Assembly: GCA_041749075.1 (NCBI GenBank)
Contig: JBGTBY010000031.1
Location: 20,342-84,341, forward strand
Length of the DNA: 64,000 nucleotides
Direction of reading: 5' to 3'
Source: Balneolales bacterium
GTDB lineage: Bacteria > Bacteroidota > Rhodothermia > Balneolales > HLUCCA01
Shown here one piece after another: positions 5,314 to 49,491 of this stretch. Positions within the stretch are counted from its first letter, which is position 1. The number at the start of each line of letters is the position of its first letter. The notes below the pieces were generated by a model. That model made no database searches. It worked only from the letters and a program-made list of their open reading frames with translations, and was not told where the DNA came from. A program made the position numbers and the translations under genes.

Positions 5314-5347
5314 GTATGGAATCTACCGTTAACAATTCAATTTCGAG

Positions 5348-5355
5348 TATATTTG
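5348..5355 (+). promoter_or_regulatory. Candidate Bacteroidetes-type -7 promoter box (TAnnTTTG) upstream of ppx
   Basis: TATATTTG lies 35 nt upstream of the 5390 start codon, in the divergent intergenic region. Confidence 0.3.
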
Positions 5356-5389
5356 TTCCGGACCCAATCATCACCACCTTCCACTCCGC

Positions 5390-33334: not shown

Positions 33335-34336
33335 ATGAAACTCATCATCCCAATGGCCGGCAAGGGCACACGTTTGCGTCCGCATTCCCACACCACACCC
33401 AAACCATTGCTTCCTGTTGCGGGCATTTCCATCGTGGAGCGCATTGTGCTCACGTTCGGCCGCACCATCAATCGAAAAGTGGATGAGATCGCGTTCGTGT
33501 TGGGTGATTTCGGCGATGATGTGAAAAAAAGCCTGACGGAGATGGCCGAGCGCCAAGGTGCCACCGCATCCTTTTATGTCCAAAAAGAAGCCCGCGGAAC
33601 GGCACATGCCATTCATTGCGCGAAAGAATCGTTGGATGGGGAAGTGATCGTGGTATTCGCCGATACCTTGTTCGACACGAAGGAAATGGTGAATGTGGAT
33701 GGAGCCGACAGCGTGATCTGGCTCAAGCATGTGGAAGACCCATCGCGCTTTGGTGTGGCGGTTCATGATGCCGATGGACGCATCACCAGTTTCGTTGAAA
33801 AACCAAAAGAACTGATTTCAAACCTGGCCATCATCGGCGTGTATTATTTCAAAGACGGCGCCGGTTTGCGTCGCGAGATCCAGTATTTGCTGGATCACAA
33901 CATCACGGGTCATGGCAATGAGTATCAATTGACGGATGCGATCGACGCGTTGCTCAAACAAGGAAAAGTGTTCAAAGCGGCTACGGTGGATGAGTGGTTG
34001 GATTGCGGCACCGTTCCGGCTTGGTTGGAAACCACATCCACCATCATCGCGAAGGAATTCGGAAACTCGATGCCGGGTCCGTTTCCACGTACCGTGATCC
34101 ATCCGCCGGTGTACATCGGCGAGGGAGCAGTGATCGAGGGAAGTGAGATCGGTCCGAACGCGAGCATCGGCGCGGGATGTGTAATCCGCAACAGCCGCAT
34201 TTCAGACGCGATCGTGCTCGACAAATCGGTTGTGGAGCAATCCAAGCTCACTCAATCCACGATCGGAACGCATGCTCATGTGAATGGCTTCACGGGTAGT
34301 GTGAACATCAGCGACCACAGCGTGGTCAAGGGTTGA
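33335..34336 (+). CDS. Sugar-1-phosphate nucleotidyltransferase with C-terminal left-handed beta-helix
   Basis: N-terminal IIPMAGKGTRLRPHSHTTPKPLLPV (GxGTRxxP motif). C-terminal hexapeptide-like repeats (IGEGAVIEGSEIGPNASIGAGCVI). Confidence 0.8.
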   Translation: MKLIIPMAGKGTRLRPHSHTTPKPLLPVAGISIVERIVLTFGRTINRKVDEIAFVLGDFGDDVKKSLTEMAERQGATASFYVQKEARGTAHAIHCAKESLDGEVIVVFADTLFDTKEMVNVDGADSVIWLKHVEDPSRFGVAVHDADGRITSFVEKPKELISNLAIIGVYYFKDGAGLRREIQYLLDHNITGHGNEYQLTDAIDALLKQGKVFKAATVDEWLDCGTVPAWLETTSTIIAKEFGNSMPGPFPRTVIHPPVYIGEGAVIEGSEIGPNASIGAGCVIRNSRISDAIVLDKSVVEQSKLTQSTIGTHAHVNGFTGSVNISDHSVVKG

Positions 34337-35315
34337 TCGCGGCTTGAGATTTATCGACGATGTCGCGGATGATGGCATCGATTTCGTTTGTCGAATCCAA
34401 CACGGCTTTAAGGATGTCCTCACGCTCATTGTCTGAGACGATATCCTGTTCCAGCATGTTCACCAGCCCGATAAGCCGGGCGACCGGTGCGCGAACCACA
34501 TGCGATTGGGTCCAGGCGATGTCGCGAAGTTTCTTGTTCTGCTCTTCAATGGCATGCAGATACGCGATTTTCTCGGTCATGTCTGTCACTAGAACCAAGC
34601 GGGCCGCTACATTGTTGTAGTTGATAGTCGCAGTTTGGATTTCGACATAAATGAGATCCCCGTTTTTCTTGAGATGCCGAACGGTGTCGGTGTACGTTTC
34701 TTCGTGGCTGCGTGTCAATAGCTTGGGTATGTCGTCGCGATGGCGGATGTCGCCAACCGTCAAATTCAGAAATTCGTCTCGGGCATAGCCGTAATGCGCG
34801 ATGGCCGCATTGTTCACATCTAAAAAGCGGTTCGTCTCGATTTCATACACCCACATCGGAGCCGGACTCAGATGGAACAAATCCATGTACCGTTTTTCTG
34901 ATTCGATGAGCGATTGCAAATAGCGGAACCGTTCGATCGAATAAATCACGCTCTTGTACAGAATGAGAGAGGTGATGGTGTCTTTTACCAGATAATCGGA
35001 AACCCCTTGTGCGAGGGATTTCGTGGCGAAATCCAAGTCCGGATATCCGGTCAGAATCACGATCGGATAGCGTTGACTCAAGATTTTCGCCTCCTCGATC
35101 AGCTGTTCACGACTGATGTCGGGCAAGGATAGGTCCAATAACACAATGTCAAAACCACTGGTGCCAAGAAGCAAGGTCTTGGCCACTTTGAAACGTGTGA
35201 CATGTGTCAGTTTCGGGCTCTGGATATGTTCCAACAGGTAGTCTTCAACCAGAAGGTAATCGCCCGGGTTGTCTTCCACCACCAATATGGAATATGGGGT
35301 TTTATCCAGTTTCAT
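34326..35315 (-). CDS. Response regulator receiver - PAS - DHp/H-box protein lacking an ATPase domain
   Basis: REC (ILVVEDNPGD...IVLLDLSLPD), PAS (APMWVYEIETNRFLDVNNAAIAHYGY), then the H-box-like SHVVRAPVARLIGL. The protein ends about 50 aa later with no N/G boxes. Confidence 0.8.
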   Translation of the reverse strand: MKLDKTPYSILVVEDNPGDYLLVEDYLLEHIQSPKLTHVTRFKVAKTLLLGTSGFDIVLLDLSLPDISREQLIEEAKILSQRYPIVILTGYPDLDFATKSLAQGVSDYLVKDTITSLILYKSVIYSIERFRYLQSLIESEKRYMDLFHLSPAPMWVYEIETNRFLDVNNAAIAHYGYARDEFLNLTVGDIRHRDDIPKLLTRSHEETYTDTVRHLKKNGDLIYVEIQTATINYNNVAARLVLVTDMTEKIAYLHAIEEQNKKLRDIAWTQSHVVRAPVARLIGLVNMLEQDIVSDNEREDILKAVLDSTNEIDAIIRDIVDKSQAAINP

Positions 35316-35755
35316 GACGAAGGCGTTTTGGGCAACTTGACGAGTTGGATCCAGAAATCCTCAATTGAATAAACCGCTGTCAAGAATGCGTCCATCTCCA
35401 CTGGTTTGGTGATGTAGCAATTGGCGTGATTTCGGTAGGATAAATCAATATCGCGTTCGGATGAGGACGTGGTGAGCATGATGACGGGTATCTTTTTCGT
35501 CCGCTCATCATTTTTGATGATTTGCAAGACTTCATGCCCGTTCTTCAGAGGCAGATTCACATCCAGCAATATCAGATCGGGTAGACTCTCATGGGCGAAT
35601 TTGCCCTGTTGGAACACAAAATCCAGCGCTTCTTTGCCGTTTTTGGCAATGCTGATTCGGTTGATGAATTTGCGTTCTTGAAGGGCTTCCGTTGTGAGCA
35701 GGATATCGCCTTCATTGTCTTCGACGAGTAGGATATGTGCGCTTTTCATATGCAT
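35312..35755 (-). CDS. Single-domain CheY-like response regulator
   Basis: ILLVEDNEGD...LILLDVNLP...KPV. Start placed at 35755 (MHMKSAH...) to avoid the upstream kinase stop at 35763. The stop overlaps the next start by 4 nt. Confidence 0.85.
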   Translation of the reverse strand: MHMKSAHILLVEDNEGDILLTTEALQERKFINRISIAKNGKEALDFVFQQGKFAHESLPDLILLDVNLPLKNGHEVLQIIKNDERTKKIPVIMLTTSSSERDIDLSYRNHANCYITKPVEMDAFLTAVYSIEDFWIQLVKLPKTPSS

Positions 35756-35762
35756 AAGGTAT

Positions 35763-37052
35763 TCACGATTTCGGCAAGGTAAAATAAAATCGGCTGCCTT
35801 CGTCGACAACCGATTCAACCCTCACGTTACCACCCAGCAGGTCCACTGTTTTTTTGACGATGGCCAATCCGATTCCAGTGCCCGAATACTCGTTCCGGGC
35901 ATGAAGGCGTTGGAAGATCTCGAAAATCTTGTCGAAATAGTTCGATTCGATGCCGATACCGTTGTCTTCGACGCAGAGTTCCCAATGGGTTTTCTTTTCC
36001 TTCGCATGGATCCGAATCACCGGCTTCACACCGTCGCGGGAGTACTTGATCGCGTTCTCAAGCAGATTGTGGATTACCTGGGTGATCGAGGTTCTGCTGA
36101 CTCTGAGCTTGGGCAACTGGTCGCTCGTCAGATCCAGACCGATGGCGTTGAGGTGCTTTCTCCTGGTTTGTGTGAATTCATCCACCACCTCGTTTAGATC
36201 CACCCATTCCGTCGATGTCGATTCCTGGTCGGTTCGAGCATAGTCCAACAGATCTTGGATGATGTGCTTCATACGGTCGGCTCCGTCCACCGCGAAGTGG
36301 ATGTATTGATGCGCTCTCGCGTCGAGTTGGTCACGGTATTTCTTGTCGAGTTGGCTCATGAAGCTGGAGATCATCCGCAACGGTTCCTGCAGATCGTGGG
36401 AGGCCACGAAAGCGAAGCGCTCCAATTCGGTGTTCTTGTTCTCGAGTTTGTCGACGGTCTCTGCAAGGCCGTCGAACAGTTTGGGGATGAGGGCGGAGCA
36501 CAACAGGCTGAGGAACATCAGATTAGAGCTGATGAGCAGCCAGATCCCAGCATCAAATTGATTCACCTTCTCAACCGGCCCCAAATCAAAATGAAGCATT
36601 CCCGCAAAGCCCAAGCAAATGACGATGTTCAGCCATGACCAGTGATAGGAATACGCTCTTGGAAGAATCAATAAGGCGAATACCGTGGCGGCGTAAATGA
36701 ACAGCAAGCCCGGACCTTCAGGACCCACGTGAATCAACATCACCAAAGCAACGGCATAGGTGCTGAGAATGAAGATGAGTTTTCGAAGCTGAACGGTCAT
36801 GCCGGGAATGAACGCAAGGTACAGGCAGAGTCCGAACGCCACGAAATCAATCCCCGCAAGAAGGTATAAGCCGTTGTTCAGGCAGAACACGATGCTTGGA
36901 AGCAGGGCGATCAGACTGAACGGAATCACATAGACCAAGGTGTTGGCGAATAGAAGATTTCGCCAATAGGTGACACTTCCGGATACGGCTTCCGATTCCA
37001 CCAGATTATGTCGGTAAATGGCGTTCCGATAGGCTTCGAATAATGCGCTCAT
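35763..37052 (-). CDS. Membrane-bound sensor histidine kinase (about 6 TM + HisKA + HATPase_c)
   Basis: H-box FVASHDLQEPLRMISSF, N box NLLENAIKY, G1 DNGIGI, G2 GTGIGLA; hydrophobic N-terminal 200 aa. Confidence 0.9.
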   Translation of the reverse strand: MSALFEAYRNAIYRHNLVESEAVSGSVTYWRNLLFANTLVYVIPFSLIALLPSIVFCLNNGLYLLAGIDFVAFGLCLYLAFIPGMTVQLRKLIFILSTYAVALVMLIHVGPEGPGLLFIYAATVFALLILPRAYSYHWSWLNIVICLGFAGMLHFDLGPVEKVNQFDAGIWLLISSNLMFLSLLCSALIPKLFDGLAETVDKLENKNTELERFAFVASHDLQEPLRMISSFMSQLDKKYRDQLDARAHQYIHFAVDGADRMKHIIQDLLDYARTDQESTSTEWVDLNEVVDEFTQTRRKHLNAIGLDLTSDQLPKLRVSRTSITQVIHNLLENAIKYSRDGVKPVIRIHAKEKKTHWELCVEDNGIGIESNYFDKIFEIFQRLHARNEYSGTGIGLAIVKKTVDLLGGNVRVESVVDEGSRFYFTLPKS

Positions 37053-40000
37053 TCAGCCGGGATGGTAAAGGTGAATGTGCTTCCTTTGCCTTCAACAGAA
37101 TGGACCCAAATGGATCCGCCTAGGTTGTCCACGATTTTTTTCACGATCGCCAGCCCGATACCGGACCCCGTGTATTCGGTTTTGTCGTGCAGCCGTTGAA
37201 AGATGATGAAGATCTTATCATAATAGTCTTCCGATATGCCGATGCCGTTGTCGCTCACGGAGATTTCCCAAAAGCCGCCATTCTTTTTGGACTGTATCCG
37301 GATTTCCGGTTTCACACCGGTTTTGGCGTATTTGATGGCGTTATCCAGCAGGTTGTTCATCACTTGAGCCACTTGCGAGCGGTACGTGTTGAGCACCGGG
37401 AGTTTGCCGCAAATCACAAGAGCTGATTTTTCCTGAATCAGTTTCGCTCTCAACAATTGATATTCATCCACGAGGACTTTGAATTCGAATGTCACTTTGT
37501 CGGACGACAACCGACCGACGCGTGAAAACTCCAAGAGATCCAAGATGATGCCGCGCATCCGGTTGGCGCCATCTACAGCGAAATGGATGTATTGATGCGC
37601 TTTGGGATCGAGGCGGTCGCTATATTTCTTCTCGAGTTGAGACAGAAAGCTGGTGATCATCCGTAATGGCTCTTGCAAGTCGTGTGAGGCCACATAGGCG
37701 AATTGCTCGAGTTCGGCGTTCGACATCTCCAGTTCCTTGGTATGCTTCTGAAGTTGGTAATTCAGCTTCTTGAGCGAATCTTCATGGGTGCGGCGATAGG
37801 TGATGTCGGTCATGGCGCCCACCACTCGAATGACACGCCCTTTCGCATCCCGGATGAAGACGGCCCGGTCCATGACCGTCGCATAGGTTCCATCCGCTTT
37901 TAAGAACCGATACTCTTCAAACCAGTTTTTCGAATCGTGGTTTCCGAAGAAGTGCTCGATCTTCAAAACAATCCGCTCCCGGTCTTCGGGGTGAATCAGG
38001 CTGATCAACCGATCGAACGTCGGTTTTTCCATGTCCACATCGTATCCGAACTGGGTCCGGAACCCCTTCCCCCAAAACAATTCGTTTTTCGTGATCTCAT
38101 AATCCCAAATCGCATCGTTTGTGGCTTCGGTGACGATGTGGAATCGCTCGTTGGTTTCCCGGATTAACTCTTCAGACTTTTTACGCTGATGGATGTCTTG
38201 GAAACTTCCGTAGATGCGAACGCATGTACCGTCTCTGAATTCTGGCTTTCCGATCGTCCGGATCCAACGCTCATTTCCTTTGGCCGTGATGATCGGCAGT
38301 TCCAGATCCCAATTTTCATGATTCTGGATGGCCGTATTCACCGCGACCTCTATGATCGGTCTCATATCCGGACGATAAAAATCCAGACCCTTGCTCAGGT
38401 CGGGTACAAAGTCTTTGTCTACTTCGTGAATGTCTCGGGTGATGTCGGACCAAAACACCGTTCCTTTCACAAGATCCACTTCCCAGCTACCGATAATGGC
38501 CAGTTTGGCGGCGTTATCGAACAATTCCTGAAGTCGGATCATATCAGTCATATTCCGACCATAGGCATAAATAAACCCATCTTCGCCGAACACAACCGAT
38601 GAATTCCACGAAATCCAAATCACATCACCCGTTTTGCTGATGTATCGGTTGATGACGTTATTGGCAGAGGGTTTTCCCAGATCGTCTGGGTGCATGAATG
38701 TCTCGAAAGGTTGCGTGGTGAGTTCCTCTTCGGAATAACCGGTTAGAGCGCAGAACACCGGGTTCACTTTCACGAAATGCCCTTTTGGGGATGCGATGGC
38801 GAGGATGTCGGGCGAGCTGCTGAAAAAGTGATGTAGCTCGTTTTCCTGCTGCTTGCGTTTGATTTCGGCCCCGAGAATGGATTCAAGTGGAGTGAACACA
38901 TCAAACTGACCGTTCATTTCCTGCTGAATCAGAGTCGATCCGAACATCAACACACCAATGCATTCCTCATTATGACGCAAAGGAATGGCGAAAGCCGATT
39001 TCAGCCCTGCGATTTTAGCCGCATCTCGCCGCAAAAACTCTGTCTTAGTATCGATATCGGTCCAAATATGCCGTTTGGGATTCTTCCATACGGTTCCAGG
39101 TAGACCCTCTCCCATTTTGAACTGACGTATGGATTTAGATTGCTTGAAATAGGTCTTGCCTTGTTTGGATGTCTGGTAGATCGACATCAGGTTCAGTACC
39201 GTGCTGTCGTAGTTCTTCAACCAGATTTCACCGGTTTCAAATCCTCCGAATTTGGACAGATATGCCAGGACGTTGGTCAATGTGGAGTCCAGATCCGTAT
39301 TTTCTTTGAAGAGTTCGGCCAATTCTCGCTGGACAGACAATTGGATTTTTTTTAGTTGCTCGTTCGACACATCGCGTAAGACGCCGATCATTCGAATCGG
39401 AGCGCCTTTTGCGTCGCGGATCATGTATCCGATCTCATCCACATAGGCATAAGACCCATCCGACCGTCTGAAACGGAAGGAATTGGTCCAATTCTGTTTC
39501 TGCCGATCGTTGAAGAAATCAAGCCAAGGCGACTCGTGTTCTGTTGAATCTTCGGGATGAGTGAGGGCGATCCAATCATTCAATCGGAACGGGCTTTCCG
39601 ATTTCGGATGACCGAATAGGCGATGGAACCCATCACCCCAAGAAAAGTCATCGTTCACCACATCCCAATCGTAGATCGCGTCGGATGTGGCTTTGGTCAC
39701 ATATTCGAACCGTTCGTTGCTGTCATAGAGGGCTTGACTACGATGATGGCTTTCCATGATCACGCCTAAGAGCGAAGCGGATCGAAGGAACAATTCCAAC
39801 TCTTTCTCGCTGGGCGCTTTCTTCTGATGGAAATAATAGGCAAAGGTGGCCATGACCCGACCCTTCGAATCGAAAATCGGTTGAGACCAACACGCTTTGA
39901 TGCCGTGCGACAGGGCGTCTTTCCGGAAGGATTTCCACTTCGGATCCGTTGCGATGTCGCTGACGATCACCGGTTTGCCGGTGTACGCGGCGGTTCCGCA

Positions 40001-43000
40001 AGAGCCGTGGTTGGGACCGATCGGCTTTTTGTCGAACGAATTCCACAATTCCGGTGCCAAAGACGGTGCGGTGCGTGTGAGCACCATTCCATCCTTCACC
40101 GTCATGATGGTGCAATGCATGTGAGGAAAGTTGGATTCGATGCCACGCAAATACACGGTTAGAATGGCATCGAGATCGGCGCCCTCTTTGATGGAATCCT
40201 CCATCATCACCCTCTCGAGCTGTTCCAATCGGGATGTGAGAACGCTGTCGGTCACATCCCGGAAATTGTCGATGATTCCCATGATGTTCGGATCGTCGAG
40301 CAGATTCGTGATGGTGGCCTCAAGCCATCTCCATGTGCCGTCTTTGTGCTTTGTGCGGGAGGTGTAGCCCTTGGTTGGTACGCCGGGATTTGCCAAGGCA
40401 ATCTGCATTTTCTCCACAACACCATTCACATCGTCAGGATGGATGATCGTGAACAGATTCAAGTCCAGCGCTTCTTTTTCGGTATAGCCGAGTACGTTTG
40501 TGATGGATGGCGACACATAGGTAGGGCGCCCGTCCGCTCCGATGATGGCGATGGCATCGCCGCCGTTTTCCACCAAGCTTCTGTATCGCTGTTCGGCACG
40601 GTTTCGGTCGGTCACGTTTTGCGCTGTGCCGAACAATCTCACAACCCGACCCGACTCATCCATCTCCGTATAGCCGAACTCTTCGATGAGGCGATGTTCA
40701 CCTGTCGGCGTGGTGATCCGGTACGTGATATTGAATGGTTCGCCGGTTTCCTGTGAACGCTTACTGGTTTGTTCGGCGTAATCGCGATCATCGGGATGAA
40801 TGAGGTCCAAGAACGATTTGTGGGTTTCCTTAAACGTCTCTCGATCGGCGCCGAACACATCGTACAAGGCATCGGTCCAAGTGAGGCTGTCTGTGCGGAA
40901 ATCGAAGTTCCAACTGCCCATTTGGGCAAACCGTTGCGCTTCGGCCATGATGGCCTCGCTTTGCGTGATCTTGACCTGGCTTTTGAGGAGCTCGGCCTGC
41001 GAACGTTTGAACTCCGTCACATCTTCAATGGTGGTGACTTTGTAACGCTTGCCATCCGGATCGATCAGCAATTCCGCAGAAACCTTGACGGTGAGCGGGT
41101 TGCCCATTTTGTCAACGACCTCGAACTCACCGGGAGGCTCGTGCCCGTTCAGAATGAAGTCATCATGGGCCTTCCGCATGAACGCTTCGTGCTCGGGTGC
41201 CACCATTCTCGAAAATTGAGTGCCGATGAGCTCTTCTTTGGCGTACCCGTAAATGGTGCAATAGTTGTCGTTCATATCCACGAACAGACCGTTCTCATCG
41301 GTGATGCAGATTCCGTTCGACGTGGCGTTGAACACCGCGTTGACCAGGCGTTCTCTGGAGTTCAATGTGGAGAGCGCGACCTTGAGATCCGTTACGTCCA
41401 ACACACCGATCGATACATTATGGATGGCTCCCGTTCGATCGGCGGCAGGTGAGAAATGCATGGCGAACCAACGTTGCTGATCCTGCACATCCGTCACTTC
41501 CAATTCGATGGACGCCGGTTTTCCGTTCAACGCCGTCTTGAAATGCCGCATGAACCGCTCCACTTGACCCGACGGAAGCAGGTCGATGATGGAATCGTCA
41601 ACCGCGATGGTTCGCCCGTGGAGTTGACGGAATGTGTGGTCTGCCTTGTGATTGAATCGCTGCACCTTGTAGGCAGAATCGACCATCACGAACGCCTGAA
41701 GGTCATTGTTCAAAAGAGCGTGGGCGTTGGCCTGGCTCAATTCAAGTGCGAGTTCGCGTGCCTCCAATTCCTCATGAGCCACTTTCAGCTCGGAATAGGT
41801 GATCTGGATTTCCTCGTTCGCGCTTTGAAGCTCTTCATTGCTGGTCTCCAGCTCTTCATTGCTCGACTGGAATTCCTCATTCATGCCCTGCAACTCTTCA
41901 TTGAGCGATTGTAGCTCCTCGTTGCTGTTTTCGATCACTTCGATATAGGTCTCTAGCTGCAATTTGGTGGATGCCAACTCCTGTTCCAGCTCGTGCACCC
42001 TTCCCTGGGTTCGAGGTTTCGCTTCCGAAGACACCACATCCTTCAAATCGATCGTTTCGAAAATGACCATGATCGTTGTTTGGGAATCGGTCTGGCTCAA
42101 GACCGGGAGGGCGCTGATCCGAACATATTGAAGTGGGCCAAACGGCTCAAAACGCCGGATACGCCCCTTTATGCCTGTTCGATTTTTTTGGACTTGTGTC
42201 AGAACCGACCGCACATCGAGATGAAGGTCCTGATGCACCATCTTCAGCAGATTCGTCTGGATTTGACCCGCTGCCAGCGTCACAATCAATCTCACATCTC
42301 CATTCACTTCCAGAACGTCGAACGACTCGTTCACCACCACATAGGGATGTTCATAGGCGCTGAACAGGGTTTCCCGAACCCTATCATGAAGGGTCGGCTT
42401 TTGAGGTCGCGTTTCGGCCGACGAGGGTGTGGACGTCGACGTGCTCAATGTTTTAGCGGTCGGATACTTCAACGCACCCATCGCGCCGGGTTTGCGTCGG
42501 TAGAGCTTGTTCCTGGCATTGACCGAACCGAACAAGTCAGTGAAGTTACCGATGGTTTCCGATTTTCCAAGAAACAGGATACCACCTGCTTTCAACGCAT
42601 TCTGAAATACAGGGAACACACGTTGCTGAAGAGTGGCATTGAAATAAATGAGTAGGTTTCGGCACGAAACCAGATCCAATTTCAAAAACGGAGGATTCTG
42701 GGTCAGGTCGTGTTTGGAAAAAAGCACACGTGAGCGAATCGATTTCGACAGTTCGATCTGTTCTCCGACCCGGTTGATGGCCTCTCGATGATAGAGTTCG
42801 GGAATCGAGTCGAGTTCGTTGGCCGGGTATAAGCCTCGGCGTGCGATGGCGATGGCGCGGTCGTCGATGTCGGTCGCAAAAATCTGAAACGTGAATGTGG
42901 ATTTCTGTTCTCTCAGGATCTGGTTGAGCATCATGGCGATCGAATACGCCTCTTGCCCGGTCGAACATCCCGGCACCCACACCCGAATGGGTTCCACGTC

Positions 43001-43912
43001 GCGTTTATCCACAATCAGGGACTGAATCAGCTTCCGAAGCTCGGAGAATGCGGCCGGGTCGCGGAAAAACGTCGTTACGCCGATCAAGATCGTGTTGAAC
43101 ATTTCATCCGCTTCGCTCGGATCCCGCTCGATCAGCGACACATAGTCGTCGATATCACTGATTCCCAATTGGGAAAGGCGTTTTTCCAACCGACGTCCCA
43201 CGGTGCCGGATTTGTAATTGGAGAAATCCGCACCCGTCCGCTTTCCGAGCAGATAGAAAATCCGGGACATCGAATCCGTCATGACATCCATGGCATCTGC
43301 CTCGATGTCTCGTGTTTTTCCGAGGAGATGGGCTTGGATGCTTGCCCCGATCTCATTCACCGACACAATCTCATCCACAACTCCGGTTTGGATTGCGGCT
43401 TTCGGCATGCTGTCAAATTTCGCGGTTTCTGGCGATTGGACGATCACATAGCCCCCCGCTTCATGCAAGGCCACAACACCCTGCGCGCCGTCCGATCCGG
43501 TTCCGGATAAGATTACGCCAACCACCCGATGAGTGGTCTGTTTGGCAAGCGAGTTGAATAGCACATTCACAGACGGCTTGGGTCCGGCCACTGTAGGCTC
43601 CTTCCGAAGCACGATCTTGCCTTTTTCAACCGAAATCTCCCGATCAGGAGGTGTGATGTAGACCATTCCCGCTTTCAGGGTCGTTTTAGAGGTCGCCTCC
43701 ACCACAGTCAGTTCCGTTTCACGGTCGAGCAATTGGGTGAGGATGCTTTTATGCGACGGACTAAGATGCTGCGCCACAATGAGACAGGCGTTTTCGAGCG
43801 GTGCCAGATGGGACAACAGATGCTGAAGAGCATCCAACCCACCGGCTGAAGCACCAATTGCAACGATAGTAAGAGTGGGACTTTTCAGGTGCGTCTCTCC
43901 GCCAAGTGTCAA
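37049..43912 (-). CDS. 2287-aa CheB methylesterase - CheR methyltransferase - coiled coil - multi PAS/GAF - histidine kinase fusion
   Basis: N-terminus IVAIGASAGGLDAL (CheB). VWVPGCSTGQEAYSIA (CheR SAM site). NEELQSLNEELQGMNEEFQSSNEELETSNEELQSANEE coiled coil. Many PAS S-boxes, two GAF-like segments. H-box YVASHDLQEPLRMITSF, N/G boxes NLLDNAIKY, DNGIGI, GSGIGLA. Confidence 0.9.
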   Translation of the reverse strand: MTLGGETHLKSPTLTIVAIGASAGGLDALQHLLSHLAPLENACLIVAQHLSPSHKSILTQLLDRETELTVVEATSKTTLKAGMVYITPPDREISVEKGKIVLRKEPTVAGPKPSVNVLFNSLAKQTTHRVVGVILSGTGSDGAQGVVALHEAGGYVIVQSPETAKFDSMPKAAIQTGVVDEIVSVNEIGASIQAHLLGKTRDIEADAMDVMTDSMSRIFYLLGKRTGADFSNYKSGTVGRRLEKRLSQLGISDIDDYVSLIERDPSEADEMFNTILIGVTTFFRDPAAFSELRKLIQSLIVDKRDVEPIRVWVPGCSTGQEAYSIAMMLNQILREQKSTFTFQIFATDIDDRAIAIARRGLYPANELDSIPELYHREAINRVGEQIELSKSIRSRVLFSKHDLTQNPPFLKLDLVSCRNLLIYFNATLQQRVFPVFQNALKAGGILFLGKSETIGNFTDLFGSVNARNKLYRRKPGAMGALKYPTAKTLSTSTSTPSSAETRPQKPTLHDRVRETLFSAYEHPYVVVNESFDVLEVNGDVRLIVTLAAGQIQTNLLKMVHQDLHLDVRSVLTQVQKNRTGIKGRIRRFEPFGPLQYVRISALPVLSQTDSQTTIMVIFETIDLKDVVSSEAKPRTQGRVHELEQELASTKLQLETYIEVIENSNEELQSLNEELQGMNEEFQSSNEELETSNEELQSANEEIQITYSELKVAHEELEARELALELSQANAHALLNNDLQAFVMVDSAYKVQRFNHKADHTFRQLHGRTIAVDDSIIDLLPSGQVERFMRHFKTALNGKPASIELEVTDVQDQQRWFAMHFSPAADRTGAIHNVSIGVLDVTDLKVALSTLNSRERLVNAVFNATSNGICITDENGLFVDMNDNYCTIYGYAKEELIGTQFSRMVAPEHEAFMRKAHDDFILNGHEPPGEFEVVDKMGNPLTVKVSAELLIDPDGKRYKVTTIEDVTEFKRSQAELLKSQVKITQSEAIMAEAQRFAQMGSWNFDFRTDSLTWTDALYDVFGADRETFKETHKSFLDLIHPDDRDYAEQTSKRSQETGEPFNITYRITTPTGEHRLIEEFGYTEMDESGRVVRLFGTAQNVTDRNRAEQRYRSLVENGGDAIAIIGADGRPTYVSPSITNVLGYTEKEALDLNLFTIIHPDDVNGVVEKMQIALANPGVPTKGYTSRTKHKDGTWRWLEATITNLLDDPNIMGIIDNFRDVTDSVLTSRLEQLERVMMEDSIKEGADLDAILTVYLRGIESNFPHMHCTIMTVKDGMVLTRTAPSLAPELWNSFDKKPIGPNHGSCGTAAYTGKPVIVSDIATDPKWKSFRKDALSHGIKACWSQPIFDSKGRVMATFAYYFHQKKAPSEKELELFLRSASLLGVIMESHHRSQALYDSNERFEYVTKATSDAIYDWDVVNDDFSWGDGFHRLFGHPKSESPFRLNDWIALTHPEDSTEHESPWLDFFNDRQKQNWTNSFRFRRSDGSYAYVDEIGYMIRDAKGAPIRMIGVLRDVSNEQLKKIQLSVQRELAELFKENTDLDSTLTNVLAYLSKFGGFETGEIWLKNYDSTVLNLMSIYQTSKQGKTYFKQSKSIRQFKMGEGLPGTVWKNPKRHIWTDIDTKTEFLRRDAAKIAGLKSAFAIPLRHNEECIGVLMFGSTLIQQEMNGQFDVFTPLESILGAEIKRKQQENELHHFFSSSPDILAIASPKGHFVKVNPVFCALTGYSEEELTTQPFETFMHPDDLGKPSANNVINRYISKTGDVIWISWNSSVVFGEDGFIYAYGRNMTDMIRLQELFDNAAKLAIIGSWEVDLVKGTVFWSDITRDIHEVDKDFVPDLSKGLDFYRPDMRPIIEVAVNTAIQNHENWDLELPIITAKGNERWIRTIGKPEFRDGTCVRIYGSFQDIHQRKKSEELIRETNERFHIVTEATNDAIWDYEITKNELFWGKGFRTQFGYDVDMEKPTFDRLISLIHPEDRERIVLKIEHFFGNHDSKNWFEEYRFLKADGTYATVMDRAVFIRDAKGRVIRVVGAMTDITYRRTHEDSLKKLNYQLQKHTKELEMSNAELEQFAYVASHDLQEPLRMITSFLSQLEKKYSDRLDPKAHQYIHFAVDGANRMRGIILDLLEFSRVGRLSSDKVTFEFKVLVDEYQLLRAKLIQEKSALVICGKLPVLNTYRSQVAQVMNNLLDNAIKYAKTGVKPEIRIQSKKNGGFWEISVSDNGIGISEDYYDKIFIIFQRLHDKTEYTGSGIGLAIVKKIVDNLGGSIWVHSVEGKGSTFTFTIPAE

Positions 43913-43982: not shown

Positions 43983-44507
43983 TTAGGGCTCGATCACCAA
44001 TTTCAGGTTCATCCCCAATCCCGCTTCCACAATCTTTTTGAAGGTAGATAACTCGATATCGGTCTTGTTATTCTCCACACGTGAGATATAAAAGCGGGAT
44101 GTGCCGCTTCGATGCGCGACTTCTTCTTGCGTCAAGCCTGCCTTGATCCGCGCGGTTCGAATCAGTTTTCCAAAGCGATGGTTTGTCTCGCCACTCATTT
44201 CCGAACTCAAATCATATAAGACATCCGGACCGATTTCGTAAGGATGTCTTTCGTCTACTCCCTCATCATTTTTCAATGTGATGGTGATGTTGGGCCAGGA
44301 AAGTGTCTGGTTGCGCAATTCCACCTTCTGAAATTCCTTGATGTCGAGAAGCGGATTCTCGATATCGGTCTTCATCACGTTCCAGGATTCGAAAATCTGT
44401 TTGAAATCCAAGATTCGGCTTTCGCTGTTATTGAACATGACCTGAACGGTAAACCCGTCAATACGCTCAATCTTGAGGATGCGGGGGATTTTGATGTGCT
44501 TTCTCAT
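43983..44507 (-). CDS. DUF2442-like domain fused to XRE-type HTH (putative antitoxin/regulator)
   Basis: N-terminus ILKIERIDGFTVQVMFNNSESRILDF...TLSWPN...IGPDVLYDLS (DUF2442 pattern). C-terminus AGLTQEEVAHRSGTSRFYISRVENNKTD (XRE HTH). 4-nt overlap with the upstream gene. Confidence 0.75.
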   Translation of the reverse strand: MRKHIKIPRILKIERIDGFTVQVMFNNSESRILDFKQIFESWNVMKTDIENPLLDIKEFQKVELRNQTLSWPNITITLKNDEGVDERHPYEIGPDVLYDLSSEMSGETNHRFGKLIRTARIKAGLTQEEVAHRSGTSRFYISRVENNKTDIELSTFKKIVEAGLGMNLKLVIEP

Positions 44508-44737
44508 CGGCGTGGGTTCAACTTGTTATATGTGTCCATCAGATACGATATGTTCTGTTCAGCCCAAGAAATCACTTTCGTTCGTTGGGCTTTTGGTATG
44601 CTTCCAGCATAAGTCGCCAATGATTCGATTTCGATCAATTCTTCATATTCCGCATACAACACATGGAAATGCGGAGGGGGATGTTCTCTTGAGTAAACGT
44701 CAATCTTGATCGAATCAATGAGCTTGATCGTCGGCAT
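44504..44737 (-). CDS. DUF4160-family small protein
   Basis: 77 aa. IKIDVYSREHPPPHFHVLYAEYE is the characteristic DUF4160 motif. Confidence 0.8.
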   Translation of the reverse strand: MPTIKLIDSIKIDVYSREHPPPHFHVLYAEYEELIEIESLATYAGSIPKAQRTKVISWAEQNISYLMDTYNKLNPRR

Positions 44738-44740
44738 ACG

Positions 44741-44762
44741 ATGTTGTCTATGTAGATAACAT
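44741..44762. promoter_or_regulatory. 22-bp near-perfect palindrome 4 nt upstream of the DUF4160 start; candidate operator
   Basis: ATGTTGTCTA-TG-TAGATAACAT: 9 of 10 arm positions are complementary. Confidence 0.45.
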
Positions 44763-44835
44763 GATAGTGAGAGATAAAAGTATTTCCAATTGGGATTTTG
44801 GCTAAAAGTTGACCTGCGTTAAGAGCGCATAACGA

Positions 44836-45333
44836 CTATGCTGAATTCGCAGCTTGTCGCTCGATTTCGGCGCGTATCAGCTTTAAGTCGGATTGAAATT
44901 CCCTGTCGACTCGATTGCTATCAGATAATATATAAGCTGGTTTTCTATAAACATCAATTGGGAATGCATTTTGCCACGACGCCTTGTCTTTAGTTACTTC
45001 CACAGCTTGTTTCGATCCGAAAACAGTATCAGTTACTTCTATACTTGAGTTGAACTGGTCGGCAGTAATGTCAACTAAATACTCGTCGATCTCAATCCAA
45101 ACATGTCTTTGTAGACCAGAAAATCCTCCATTGACAATCTCAATTGATTTATAGCCTAGTTCAAGTAAGTACGAACCGAGTATTGTCGACGTTCTTTCAC
45201 AAGATCCGCCAGGGAAATTGGTAAATAGAAGAGATTTGATATCTAGGATAGATAGGTTCGATTTAACCCTTTCAACCGCATTTCTGAACGACTTACAATC
45301 TTCAAAAAGCTTTAATTCGAAGTTTTGCTCCAT
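44836..45333 (-). CDS. Hypothetical cytosolic protein with papain/transglutaminase-like Cys...His...Asp pattern
   Basis: 165 aa, no signal peptide. FPGGSCERTSTILGSYL (Cys at a predicted helix start) and RHVWIEIDEYLVDITADQF (His then Asp in a strand-like segment). AT-rich codon usage. Confidence 0.6.
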   Translation of the reverse strand: MEQNFELKLFEDCKSFRNAVERVKSNLSILDIKSLLFTNFPGGSCERTSTILGSYLLELGYKSIEIVNGGFSGLQRHVWIEIDEYLVDITADQFNSSIEVTDTVFGSKQAVEVTKDKASWQNAFPIDVYRKPAYILSDSNRVDREFQSDLKLIRAEIERQAANSA

Positions 45334-46082
45334 GAATTGTTTCTGAAGTATTGGTAATTAAACAGTTCAAAATCATCACTGTATATGATGTTGCTTTCAA
45401 TAAGAAAATCAAAAAAAAGTCGTCGACTTTCAATTTTAGAAACTAATACAGAATCAAACCGACTGAATTCGGGAATGTCGCTGGCTTTTCCCAAGACTAA
45501 ATCATACAAGTCACGAGTGTTGGTTTCGTCAGTTATCAACCCACCATACTTGTTTAGCAATACTAGGTTATTGTCGATGTATCGGATCACATCGTTGCTC
45601 GGGAAGATTTCAAAATTGTAGCTTCGAGTTCTTCCATCAATTACATAAATAAAGCTTGTCACATAGTGACCATCAGAAACCCGAACCTGTTTCCAACCTT
45701 CAATTTTCAGGACACCTTTCAGTGACTTCAAGTCATCTTGGATCAACGTCTCATTGTTTTTTATGGGCTTGACGGATCGAATCTCAGATAGCAAAAAAGA
45801 CCTTCTAACTTTATCTATTGCTTGCTGATCCAATGATGTTGCTATTTTATGCTCTTCGTGTGACGAACTAAGAATGGGTGTTTCTCTACCAGAGCTCAAA
45901 ATCCAGACATCACCTGTGCGCTTGTCGATTTTATAAGAAACGTGGTCTGATACTTTCTGAAGTTCAAATCGATCAGAACGATACTGGTAGACAATAATCG
46001 TGATCAGAATCAGGCTGACTACAAGCAGTAATGTTGTCCATGATGACAGGTAGAGCCTGTTTTTAACTTCTGGATTCGTCAT
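45312..46082 (-). CDS. Hypothetical membrane-anchored protein (single N-terminal TM)
   Basis: 256 aa. TM WTTLLLVVSLILITIIVY. No recognised motif. AT-rich. 22-nt overlap with the downstream gene. Confidence 0.6.
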   Translation of the reverse strand: MTNPEVKNRLYLSSWTTLLLVVSLILITIIVYQYRSDRFELQKVSDHVSYKIDKRTGDVWILSSGRETPILSSSHEEHKIATSLDQQAIDKVRRSFLLSEIRSVKPIKNNETLIQDDLKSLKGVLKIEGWKQVRVSDGHYVTSFIYVIDGRTRSYNFEIFPSNDVIRYIDNNLVLLNKYGGLITDETNTRDLYDLVLGKASDIPEFSRFDSVLVSKIESRRLFFDFLIESNIIYSDDFELFNYQYFRNNSWSKTSN

Positions 46083-46107
46083 AAACCACGATTCTCCATT
46101 TCAAAAA

Positions 46108-46536
46108 CTATTTAATAATCGTGATCACGCAATTCAGGTGATGCAGGATGTAATTCGTGACGCCGCCCGATAGCAGATCCGTGATCTTCCACTGATAGTC
46201 ACCGCCACCCATGATCACATGATCGATGCTGGCCTTGCGTGCGGTATCCACGATGGTCTCGCGGGGCTCGCCGATGGCCACCATGGTTGAGACCGAGTCC
46301 GCATCCCCCGCTTCCATCTGAAAAAAGTCCTTCGCCTCACGCAGCACGATCTTGCTTTTGTCGCGATTCAGGTCGTTCTCTTTTTCTTTCCGATCGCGCG
46401 GATCCGGAATCACGGTCATGATCAGTACGATGGGTTTGGGATCCATCAATTTGTACAGCCGAGCGGCATATTGAACCGATAAGGTGGCGTATTTCGAGCC
46501 ATCGGTGGCCAATAACCAGCGTTGGGGCAGACTCAT
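46108..46536 (-). CDS. Universal stress protein family
   Basis: WLLATDGSKYA...HVIMGG...GGVTNYILHHLNCVITII; 142 aa. Confidence 0.8.
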   Translation of the reverse strand: MSLPQRWLLATDGSKYATLSVQYAARLYKLMDPKPIVLIMTVIPDPRDRKEKENDLNRDKSKIVLREAKDFFQMEAGDADSVSTMVAIGEPRETIVDTARKASIDHVIMGGGDYQWKITDLLSGGVTNYILHHLNCVITIIK

Positions 46537-47550: not shown

Positions 47551-48960
47551 TTGACCGGACTCGACCCCACCCATATCACCCTGTTTCAGACCGTATCGGA
47601 TGTGGCCCAGAAATTGGGTCAGCCCGTGTATGTGGTCGGCGGATATGTGAGGGATTATTACTTGAATCGGCTTCGTCCGGACAAAGAGCCCGATATCGAT
47701 TTTGTGACCATTGGCTCGGGCATCGCCTTCGCCGAAGCCTTGGCCACAGAGCTGAAAACCACCCAAGTCGCCGTGTTCAAGCAATTCGGAACCGCGCAAG
47801 TGGGATGGAAGGGGATGCACCTCGAATTCGTTGGTGCGAGAAAGGAAAGCTATCGCATCGAGTCGCGCAAGCCGATCGTGGAAGACGGAACCCTGGAAGA
47901 CGACCAGAAACGTCGTGATTTCACCATCAACGCGCTGAGCTGGTCGCTGAACAAAGAGGATTTCGGAACGTTGCTTGATCCCTTTGGCGGCATCCGGGAT
48001 CTGCAGGATCGGGTGATCCGAACCCCGCTCGAACCCGACATCACATTCAGTGACGATCCGCTCCGCATGCTGCGCGCCGTGCGCTTCGCGTCGCAGCTTA
48101 GTTTCGATATCGATCCGGTCACATTCGAGGGCATCAAAGTGATGTCGAATCGCCTCGACATCATTTCCAAAGAGCGCATCCTCGACGAGCTGAACAAGAT
48201 CATCCTGTCGCCGATTCCATCCACAGGATTTGCATTGTTGTTCGAAAGTGGCTTGCTAGGCACGTTTTTCCCGGAAATGGTGAAGCTTCACGGTGTTCAA
48301 GAAGTGGAGAATTACCGGCATAAGGATAATTTCTGGCACACATTACAGGTATTGGACAATGTGGCGATGGTGAGTGACGATCTCTGGCTCCGCTGGGCCG
48401 CCATCCTGCATGATATCGCCAAGCCGAACACCCAGAAGTTTGTGGATGGCATCGGTTGGACGTTCCACGGACACGATGCCGTGGGCGCGAACATGACCAA
48501 GCGCATCTTCACCCGATTGGGATTGCCGCTCGATGAGCGGATGCGGTTCGTGCAGAATCTGGTGAGGCTGCATCTGCGTCCGATTGCGCTGGTGAAGGAA
48601 GAGGTGACCGAATCCGCCCTCAGAAGACTATTATTTGATGCGGGCGAAGACCTTGAAGCGCTCATGATGCTCTGTCGGGCCGACATCACCAGTAAGAACG
48701 ACCGCAAAGTTCAGAAATATCTGGCCAACTTCGCTTCGGTGGAAGAACGCCTCGTCGAGGTGGAGGAGAAGGACAAGCTGCGGAACTGGCGTCCACCAAT
48801 TTCGGGTGAAGACATCATGAAAGCGCTGAATCTGCCACCGGGACCTGAAGTCGGGAAGATCAAGAAGCAGATTGAAGAGGCGATCCTCGAGGGAGAAATT
48901 GCGAATGAATACGATGCCGCGTATTCCTTCATGTTGCGAGTGGCGGGAAGGGATAAGTAG
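47551..48960 (+). CDS. cca: CCA tRNA nucleotidyltransferase / poly(A) polymerase-family protein with HD domain
   Basis: VYVVGGYVRDYYL, DIDFVT, RRDFTINAL, LRAVRFA, HD motif LHDIAKP. Confidence 0.8.
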   Translation: MTGLDPTHITLFQTVSDVAQKLGQPVYVVGGYVRDYYLNRLRPDKEPDIDFVTIGSGIAFAEALATELKTTQVAVFKQFGTAQVGWKGMHLEFVGARKESYRIESRKPIVEDGTLEDDQKRRDFTINALSWSLNKEDFGTLLDPFGGIRDLQDRVIRTPLEPDITFSDDPLRMLRAVRFASQLSFDIDPVTFEGIKVMSNRLDIISKERILDELNKIILSPIPSTGFALLFESGLLGTFFPEMVKLHGVQEVENYRHKDNFWHTLQVLDNVAMVSDDLWLRWAAILHDIAKPNTQKFVDGIGWTFHGHDAVGANMTKRIFTRLGLPLDERMRFVQNLVRLHLRPIALVKEEVTESALRRLLFDAGEDLEALMMLCRADITSKNDRKVQKYLANFASVEERLVEVEEKDKLRNWRPPISGEDIMKALNLPPGPEVGKIKKQIEEAILEGEIANEYDAAYSFMLRVAGRDK

Positions 48961-48971
48961 GAAGTAGGAAG

Positions 48972-48995
48972 GGTGAAGATCTTAAATCTTCCACC
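48972..48995 (+). terminator. Hairpin downstream of cca
   Basis: GGTGAAGAT-CTTAA-ATCTTCCACC (9 bp, one bulge) followed by TTCTCT; begins 12 nt after the stop. Confidence 0.35.
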
Positions 48996-49192
48996 TTCTC
49001 TGTCCGCAAGTATCACTTAATAACGACGTTATGTGCCGTTTTTAAGCAATTAGTTGTGCCTGATTACGTAATGATTTCGAATCGTATGTATATTGATAAC
49101 AATCAATTACGACGATTTGACAGGGCAATAAGTAACACTGTCCGCAAGTCAACATATATCCATAGCAAATCCTAGCTTTCTTTGCCGACTTC

Positions 49193-49360
49193 TCACCGGC
49201 CGTAGCCTTCTGTGATATTGGAGGAAATGGATAGAGCCGATCGCTTCATCTGTCTTTGGTAATCAAAGTCTTTGATGGTTTTGATAACTTGGTATGCTTG
49301 GTTGTTCACTTGTTTTGCGCGATTCCAAACGGTCAAATCCTCGAGTTTTCGTATAGGCAT
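49193..49360 (-). pseudogene. Truncated four-helix-bundle protein gene (23S rRNA IVS protein / Avd-like family), N-terminal half only
   Basis: Own translation: MPIRKLEDLTVWNRAKQVNNQAYQVIKTIKDFDYQRQMKRSALSISSNITEGYGR*. This matches the family pattern (DL.VW..A......Y......Q..R...SI..NI.EG.GR) but stops at 55 aa, where family members, as I recall, run to roughly 115-125 aa. Below the ORF-track cutoff. Confidence 0.5.
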
Positions 49361-49491
49361 GGGGGTCTGATTTAGGTTAATAAATGCTCAAAACGAACGT
49401 CAAATAAGCATTGTTTTGAATCAGGCACAGATTCCGTAACGATTGTTCTTCCCTCTTCCAACTTCCTACTTCAACCTTCCACCTCTTCACG

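Follow-up and report, generated by a model that had tools for sequence, protein, structure and literature searches.

A strain-variable slot in a Balneolales genome holds a stand-alone papain/transglutaminase-like Cys-His-Asp protein and an orphan membrane-anchored protein

Results

A strain-specific low-GC cargo of two overlapping genes

Two small overlapping genes of low GC content lie between a CDF-usp gene pair and a DUF4160/DUF2442-HTH (helix-turn-helix) pair in a 64,000-nucleotide (nt) stretch of a Balneolales bacterium (GenBank assembly GCA_041749075.1, contig JBGTBY010000031.1), the whole of which is called the window here. The question raised by this islet is whether its genes form a dedicated two-component module, either a toxin/immunity pair or an anti-phage system combining a membrane sensor or anchor with a Cys-His-Asp effector, or are passengers that no conserved system ties together. 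Our analysis favors the second answer. The islet is probably acquired cargo in a strain-variable slot, with gene A, which encodes a protein of 165 amino acids (aa), being a solitary mobile thiol enzyme, and gene B, which encodes a 256-aa protein, being an orphan, the two making up no conserved system. The locus itself is ordinary accessory cargo, and its value lies in the 165-aa protein and the family to which it belongs. The features of the islet, in window coordinates, are:

44836-45333, minus strand: gene A, a 165-aa cytoplasmic, stand-alone papain/transglutaminase-like Cys-His-Asp(-Gln) protein (open reading frame, profile and fold)
45312-46082, minus strand: gene B, encoding a 256-aa orphan: a single transmembrane helix at the N-terminus, then a C-terminal domain of about 220 aa (open reading frame; chance 1.5e-8)
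45312-45333, minus strand: 22 nt in which the 3' end of B overlaps the 5' end of A (open reading frame coordinates and sequence)
46083-46107, minus strand: 25-nt spacer from the usp stop to the start of B, holding a GGAG (sequence)
44767-46107, minus strand: strain-specific low-GC cargo segment of 1341 nt (blastn against sister loci, junction sequences and GC trough)

The original prediction, made by a model from the sequence, had described two genes of these lengths, overlapping by 22 nt and set between the usp-CDF and DUF4160/DUF2442-HTH pairs, and open reading frames and Pfam matches confirmed this layout. Its claim of a lower GC content than the flanks was likewise borne out when GC was computed in windows, with 38.5% over the 1247-nt islet against a mean of 51.3% (standard deviation 3.0%, same-size windows) for the window as a whole. 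The islet was the deepest GC trough of the window; equally low windows made up 0.5%, and every one of them overlapped the islet. At third codon positions the GC fraction was 0.355 in A and 0.397 in B, against 0.70 in usp, 0.68 in the CDF gene and 0.63 in a giant kinase gene nearby.

Organism names carried by CDF orthologues put the genome in Balneolales/Balneolaceae. We compared the surroundings of seven close orthologues of the CDF gene and ran blastn against five sister loci (L087, L083, L082, L085 and L088). The slot after usp was empty in relatives with CDF identities of 92%, 83%, 82% and 80%. Homology with all relatives stopped exactly at the usp stop codon (46108), and in two syntenic sisters it restarted at 44766-44743, a 24-nt leader, and again at the HTH gene; the cargo is therefore delimited as 44767-46107. 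Its edges are the usp stop codon on one side and, on the other, the 24-nt leader conserved ahead of the DUF4160/DUF2442-HTH operon. Two relatives (L087 and L083, 91% CDF identity) held a different two-gene cassette of 35% GC in the slot, on the opposite strand:

L087 3346-4384 and L083 11498-12380, opposite strand to the window cargo: alternative cassette in the same slot (sister-genome context)

In this cassette a 259-aa protein without a family overlaps an 89-aa protein with a weak PIN match (Pfam E 0.004), the latter cut to 37 aa in L083. PADLOC gave no match for the alternative cassette, and no similarity between the 259-aa protein and B was found by BLASTP (E 0.2). Judging from these breakpoints, 44767-46107 is strain-specific cargo, horizontally acquired as the original prediction had proposed, and the slot, in the genomes compared, is a small chromosomal hot spot at which foreign low-GC two-gene cargos appear to be swapped in Balneolales.

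That the two frames are non-functional, being decaying foreign DNA or chance openings, is scarcely credible. B has no homologue, its own promoter was not detected, and the GC content and codon usage of the islet are atypical for the host, all of which such a reading would accommodate. However, the chance of an open frame at this base composition is about 1.5e-8 for 256 codons and about 9e-6 for 165 codons, both genes have the coding-like pattern of higher GC at first than at second codon positions, and a GGAG stands ahead of B. Gene A is also full length and retains every invariant residue of its family, and its start agrees with the N-termini of its homologues.

Gene A belongs to a large family of stand-alone proteins

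The motifs GGSCERTSTILGSYL and HVWIEIDEYLVDITADQ are both present in A. A signal peptide, a transmembrane segment and an extra domain were looked for in the protein and none was found; it consists of a single domain with an acidic helical N-terminus. A word-indexed homology search returned A itself and nothing else, whereas HMMER, run exhaustively over 1.84 billion cluster representatives, recovered 746 relatives at E<=1e-3. The family comprises about 746 clusters at 50% identity, mostly stand-alone proteins of 130-160 aa (about 140). In alignments of 81 and 138 members five residues were invariant (P41, C45, H77, D88 and Q93), four others (F40, W79, T90 and F94) were nearly so, and the family signature reads FPxGxC ... 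HxWLE ... (I/V)DITADQF. Two members depart from the stand-alone plan: in P0050 (319 aa) an N-terminal JAB/MPN-type domain with the HTHPEPFPRPSSTD motif is fused to the Cys-His-Asp domain, and in P0006 (274 aa) the Cys-His-Asp domain occurs as a tandem duplication.

The original prediction had been unable to match A to a described family, and our scans agreed. The best Pfam match was YunG (PF24585), a family of small Bacillus-type proteins, which scored 20.5 bits against a gathering cut-off of 27 (E 5.6e-4). The YunG model has 116 positions and is thus of A-family size, and the match covers the His-Asp region but is confined to residues 65-114. Since YunG is itself uncharacterised, this link adds no function. 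NCBIfam gave no match for A, and PADLOC-DB v2 gave 0 matches for A, for B and for 81 members of the A family. One PHROG was matched (phrog_26734, E 7e-7), and its function is unassigned. Among the 81 relatives, weak Pfam matches were obtained to YunG (26 at E<0.01, best E 2.4e-5), Transglut_core (6), Tox-PLDMTX (5), Transglut_core3 (4) and DUF2026 (4). Tox-PLDMTX, Transglut_core3 and DUF2026 have been grouped in the deamidase/transglutaminase cluster of papain-like folds (PMC10318531). Cluster look-up of ten homologues gave no name beyond 'hypothetical protein', and literature searches on YunG or PF24585 and on transglutaminase-like anti-defence proteins found nothing relevant. The A family is best filed as a large, un-curated and unstudied family of stand-alone mobile proteins, and A as a new member of the papain/transglutaminase-like superfamily.

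The Transglut_core3 matches (best E 3.9e-5), together with matches of three of the 81 relatives to the NCBIfam lasso_biosyn_B2 model (best 4e-4) and the overlap of A with B, brought up the idea that A is a lasso-peptide B2/McjB-type maturation protease or a processing enzyme acting on B. A itself matches neither Transglut_core3 nor lasso_biosyn_B2 (NF033537). Adjacent to it we found no Asn-synthetase-like cyclase, no B1/PqqD-like gene and no short precursor open reading frame, and the loci of its homologues have no such genes either. This idea is highly improbable, and the lasso-peptide protease was rejected because the partner genes are missing.

Fold and predicted catalytic center of A

The residues on which the predicted center of A depends are encoded at the following positions:

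45199-45201, minus strand: Cys45 codon, predicted nucleophile and first residue of helix 45-58, in the motif FPxGxC (invariant in 138 members; aligns to SseI Cys178)
45103-45105, minus strand: His77 codon, predicted general base, on strand 76-82 (invariant; aligns to SseI His216)
45070-45072, minus strand: Asp88 codon, third residue of the triad, ending strand 85-88 and beginning DITADQF (invariant; aligns to SseI Asp231)
45055-45057, minus strand: Gln93 codon, invariant, five positions past Asp88 (the D-x4-Q-F spacing is also found in SseI, as DVSAHQF)

A profile of the A family run against all PDB sequences gave a sole meaningful match, the catalytic domain of Salmonella SseI (E 0.012 and 0.009). 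Counted along this alignment, C45, H77 and D88 fall on SseI Cys178, His216 and Asp231, which were defined as the triad of that enzyme crystallographically (PMC3498931), and the invariant Gln93-Phe94 of A aligns with the Gln-Phe of SseI at the same distance from the Asp. A phmmer search of PDB sequences with the single sequence of A gave chance matches or none.

AlphaFold2 modeled A with its family alignment at a predicted local distance difference test (pLDDT) score of 92.9 and a predicted template-modeling score of 0.89. In the model helix 45-58 begins with Cys45, strand 76-82 carries His77, and Asp88 is the last residue of strand 85-88, so that A has the superfamily arrangement of a Cys at a helix N-terminus followed by His and Asp on successive strands, in the order Cys-His-Asp. 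Foldseek placed SseI (4g29) first among PDB structures (probability 0.93, E 0.04, TM-score 0.39), with no match at E<=0.001; the lower ranks held protein-glutaminase, AvrPphB, LapG, the C39 domain of PCAT1 and RavD, papain-like proteins at E 0.4-4. Against viral models the best Foldseek matches were uncharacterised proteins and a 'COG3672 transglutaminase-like cysteine proteinase'. Two independent methods pick out one solved structure and one set of catalytic residues. The fold assignment is well supported, and we hold the fold and family of A to be highly probable. The part of the original prediction that made A a cytosolic Cys/His/Asp protein of papain/transglutaminase type thus stands on the invariant residues, the SseI profile match, the AlphaFold2 model and Foldseek. 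As the absolute scores are modest, a specific deamidase function can be proposed only by analogy.

How far does the likeness to known enzymes extend? With SseI (SrfH) of Salmonella and the C3 domain of the Pasteurella multocida toxin PMT (Tox-PLDMTX, PF15645; PDB 4g29, 2ebf/2ec5), A shares the order and placement of Cys, His and Asp and the Gln-Phe after the Asp, and SseI was its top PDB match both by profile and by Foldseek, but the similarity is remote (16% identity, TM-score 0.39). PF15645 was matched weakly by five of the 81 relatives (best E 0.002), and A itself did not match it at E<=1. In SseI and PMT the domain is part of a large toxin, secreted or translocated, whose targets are eukaryotic G-alpha proteins, whereas A is a 165-aa single-domain cytoplasmic protein of free-living bacteria without a delivery domain. 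Transglut_core (PF01841), Transglut_core3/McjB, protein-glutaminase (2zk9) and LapG/BTLCP (4fgo) belong to the same superfamily and have the same catalytic arrangement. A published 'cluster III' of deamidases and transglutaminases takes in Transglut_core3/McjB and protein-glutaminase but not Transglut_core or LapG (PMC10318531). Transglutaminase-like and protein-glutaminase enzymes are periplasmic, secreted or encoded in biosynthetic clusters; at A the partner genes are absent and the matches are below threshold.

We propose that A would act as a cytoplasmic thiol enzyme of the papain/transglutaminase fold with a center like those of SseI, PMT-C3 and protein-glutaminase. In this scheme His77 and Asp88 would activate the thiolate of Cys45, which would attack an amide carbonyl of a protein substrate in an active site that Gln93, Trp79 and Pro41 may shape, and water would resolve the acyl-enzyme, resulting in glutamine deamidation or in (iso)peptide hydrolysis. 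A is most likely catalytically competent. By analogy, deamidase-type chemistry is a tentative suggestion and proteolysis a doubtful one.

The A family is widespread and occurs on mobile elements

Loci of A homologues were fetched with a 30-sequence DITADQF subset of the family, which gave 266 confirmed genome hits (one genome per species) in many phyla. Our neighborhood set consisted of 80 of these genome loci and 41 IMG/VR viral loci (L095-L135), or 121 in total. Homologues were present in 71 plasmid records, including IncX1 plasmids and Pseudomonas megaplasmids, and in three phages, with one homologue adjoining the integrase of a temperate Pseudomonas phage. The plasmid and phage homologues retain the catalytic residues. 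Homologues were also observed as single-open-reading-frame integron cassettes with attC-like repeats on both sides, in the Vibrionaceae Vibrio metschnikovii (L044 5889-6581) and Photobacterium kagoshimensis (L038 5853-6431). The repeats are about 93-99 nt long and stand in long cassette arrays (17 copies in 12 kb of L044); these two arrays are sedentary chromosomal integrons. A-family genes were lower in GC than their own loci, by a median of 4.5 points (-4.5, Wilcoxon p 6e-10). Single-gene integron cassettes show that a gene of the A type is mobilised alone. As the family turns up not only there but also on plasmids, in prophages and at variable chromosomal sites, A would work without a dedicated partner.

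One plasmid homologue is itself a 165-aa protein: WP_001031030.1, annotated as hypothetical, is encoded at 4887-5384 of the E. coli IncX1 plasmid pO111-110512_3 (L093). It lies in an accessory region with hypothetical genes and DinQ-like type I toxins, and it makes the A family experimentally tractable.

On the IMG/VR phage contigs, the 121 neighbors of A homologues included six DNA methyltransferases, four ParB-like nucleases and six small terminases. The phage region of methyltransferase, ParB-like and small-terminase genes often carries accessory or anti-restriction genes. A placement of A-family genes in phage head-morphogenesis modules was rejected, the PHROG neighbors being methyltransferase, ParB-like and small-terminase genes.

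This distribution bears on a further explanation, in which the A family is a fitness factor of mobile elements, a counter-defence or host-manipulating deamidase or protease, with the copy in the window a remnant or domesticated and B a hitch-hiker. It would account for the conjugative IncX1 plasmids, the Pseudomonas megaplasmids, the phage gene beside an integrase and the 41 IMG/VR contigs, for the phrog_26734 match and for the phage neighborhood of methyltransferases, ParB-like nucleases and small terminase. The homologue fused to a JAB/MPN isopeptidase domain would also fit, as would the nearest solved relative, SseI, an effector that modifies a host protein (PMC6107295). Yet most of the 266 genome hits were chromosomal without an obvious element, and no mobile-element genes were found in or beside the islet within the window. 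We regard this explanation as improbable, and it is compatible with, rather than opposed to, the reading of the islet as acquired cargo.

The family is exposed here as one that curated models do not cover and of which no member has been studied; it has an invariant center of the SseI/PMT type, is widespread and occurs on mobile elements. When the catalytic domain of a toxin circulates on mobile elements in minimal, stand-alone form, it is a plausible new participant in defence, counter-defence or post-translational regulation. For the A family in particular, a role in defence or counter-defence is unlikely, though it deserves mention. A bolder proposal is that its members are unrecognised single-gene mobile effectors in conflicts between bacteria and mobile elements, on the side of defence or counter-defence, directing an SseI/PMT-like Cys-His-Asp-Gln center at one conserved protein of bacterium or phage that they would deamidate or cleave, and that the copy in the window has recruited B for localisation or gating; we consider this quite unlikely.

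B and A are not a conserved pair

B carries a single predicted transmembrane helix near its N-terminus, in agreement with the original prediction:

45981-46055, minus strand: predicted transmembrane helix of B, about residues 10-34, LYLSSWTTLLLVVSLILITIIVYQY (Kyte-Doolittle window; AlphaFold2 helix)

The single-sequence AlphaFold2 model of B had a pLDDT of 45 overall, with a confident helix at residues 4-38 and a pLDDT of 76-93 over residues 1-40. The charges flanking the transmembrane helix are balanced. A word-indexed search of a 5.8-billion-protein index returned B alone (as the same kind of search had returned A alone), metagenome and viral contigs held no relative of B, and no match was obtained in Pfam, NCBIfam, PADLOC or PDB sequences, the last by phmmer. 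In these searches B is a lineage-restricted, seemingly membrane-anchored orphan and not part of a conserved system.

If B and A formed a two-component module, the pair should be conserved across genomes. A phmmer search with B of all open reading frames in the 121 A-homologue loci found nothing. Clustering of neighbors within three genes gave no family present in more than three loci, and those that reached three were near-identical Streptomyces contexts; a sensitive comparison of operonic neighbors linked only sister genomes. A single-transmembrane protein stood immediately upstream of an A homologue in 2 of the 80 genome loci. The 150 immediate neighbors scanned with Pfam and PADLOC were heterogeneous. 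Defence genes among them occurred once each (Upx, Drt8, Shedu SduA, mad5, RT_UG21, a type II methyltransferase and a type I S subunit), counts for which no background rate is at hand. The adjacency and co-conservation across genomes that would mark a two-gene toxin-antitoxin or toxin-immunity module were not found for B and A. The original prediction had proposed such a module and had named a lack of co-conservation in other genomes as what would refute it; since the pair is not co-conserved, the two-component reading is not supported.

Several observations are nonetheless on the side of that reading. The two genes overlap by 22 nt and have a common low-GC composition, the variable slot lies beside a toxin-antitoxin-like pair, the cargo of the sisters is likewise of two genes and includes a weak PIN match, and a few A homologues adjoin defence genes. 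Two small overlapping foreign genes in a variable locus next to a DUF4160/DUF2442-HTH pair do resemble type II toxin-antitoxin or toxin-immunity pairs. They differ from such pairs in the lack of conserved adjacency, in the lack of a DNA-binding or immunity domain in B and in the solitary state of A homologues. With B having no homologue found, a B-like protein encoded at 0 of 121 loci, no neighbor family recurring beyond close genomes, homologues of A in single-gene integron cassettes and no PADLOC match for A, B or the 81 members, a dedicated module is improbable; a constitutive toxin lacking a conserved immunity gene would also not spread alone. Gene A belongs to no toxin-antitoxin, toxin-immunity or defence system described so far.

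The reading of the islet as acquired cargo with a solitary enzyme and an orphan allows the two genes to be linked in this strain. Joint arrival is likely because both share a foreign composition and overlap by 22 nt, and B and A were probably acquired together and are probably co-translated or co-expressed here. The overlap is an arrangement that allows translational coupling. In the 25-nt spacer ahead of B we looked for a promoter-like or terminator-like consensus signal on the minus strand and saw none. As B starts 25 nt past the usp stop, behind a GGAG and with no such signal between, read-through of B and A from the CDF-usp operon or promoter is likely.

A number of points weigh against the cargo reading and should be set beside it. 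The 22-nt overlap and the common composition hint that B and A could act jointly in this strain, although we consider a functional partnership of A with B rather doubtful. No curated Pfam or NCBIfam model reaches its threshold for A. In absolute terms A matches solved papain-like structures weakly (TM-score 0.39, Foldseek E 0.04), and the profile E-values to SseI are about 0.01. The reaction type of A is drawn purely by analogy, and SseI itself was without activity on generic substrates (PMC3498931). The gene neighborhoods were called by a crude longest-open-reading-frame method, and co-transcription with usp is argued solely from the missing consensus signals in the 25-nt spacer.

Edges of the cargo

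The downstream edge of the cargo is marked by a promoter-like site:

44761-44789, minus strand: TTGGAA-17-TATCAT, promoter-like, upstream of the DUF4160 gene (consensus match only)

The -10 element of this site falls within the 24 nt that are kept in the sister genomes. A search for repeats or integration scars flanking the islet gave only short two-copy matches, and attC-type repeats were not found at the window locus. Around the islet no tRNA and no Rfam family was found, and no integrase or transposase gene was present in or beside it within the window. One exact 14-nt repeat, TGATCACGATTATT on the minus strand, was observed at 46114-46127 (the last codons of usp) and at 45993-46006 (the transmembrane-coding part of B). 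By a rough estimate about 0.02 such chance matches are expected in 3.2 kb, and the repeat could be microhomology of the insertion event or a coincidence.

Flanking genes and further variable regions

The genes that flank the cargo are:

46108-46536, minus strand: usp (universal stress protein), last gene of the conserved CDF-usp pair (Pfam; context in relatives)
44504-44737, minus strand: DUF4160 protein, DhiT-like toxin (Pfam E 4e-13; NF048015 50.6 bits against a cut-off of 100)
43983-44507, minus strand: 174-aa HTH_3 protein with a weak, sub-threshold DUF2442 match, antitoxin-like (Pfam, NCBIfam and blastn; kept in sister genomes)

The upstream flank consists of a Cation_efflux/ZT_dimer (CDF) gene and the Usp gene on the same strand as the cargo. 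In the sister genomes a hairpin and a T-run directly follow usp. Both L087 and L083 retain the downstream DUF2442-HTH gene, which is followed by a large PAS sensor kinase, of the giant CheB/CheR type in L087 and a 1561-aa PAS kinase behind an extra 545-aa gene in L083. The DUF4160 open reading frame (window 44504-44766) is precisely deleted in these two sisters (L087 4440-4520, L083 12440-12510). At the deletion junction the shared leader ...GACAAC(ATC) joins ...CCCCGATGAGAAA at the start of the DUF2442-HTH gene, so that both genomes keep the antitoxin-like gene without its DUF4160 toxin partner. The locus documents a Balneolales hot spot whose neighbor is a DUF4160/DUF2442 toxin-antitoxin pair in decay.

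A second low-GC patch (40-43%) was observed at 48800-49400 of the window, with a 55-aa open reading frame at 49193-49360 on the minus strand. By position and sequence, and without a family scan, we take this frame to resemble a truncated 23S-rRNA-intervening-sequence (four-helix-bundle) protein. The counterpart in relatives is a full 124-aa version, to which one relative adds a 355-aa gene without a family, making this another variable spot. Downstream of the islet, the sensory block at 34326-43912 encodes a 2287-aa CheB/CheR/PAS hybrid kinase, a MASE11 histidine kinase and response regulators, and in the close relatives L082, L085, L088 and L091 it is absent or swapped for smaller PAS kinases. 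Since this block is variable too, the variable region is much larger than the islet.

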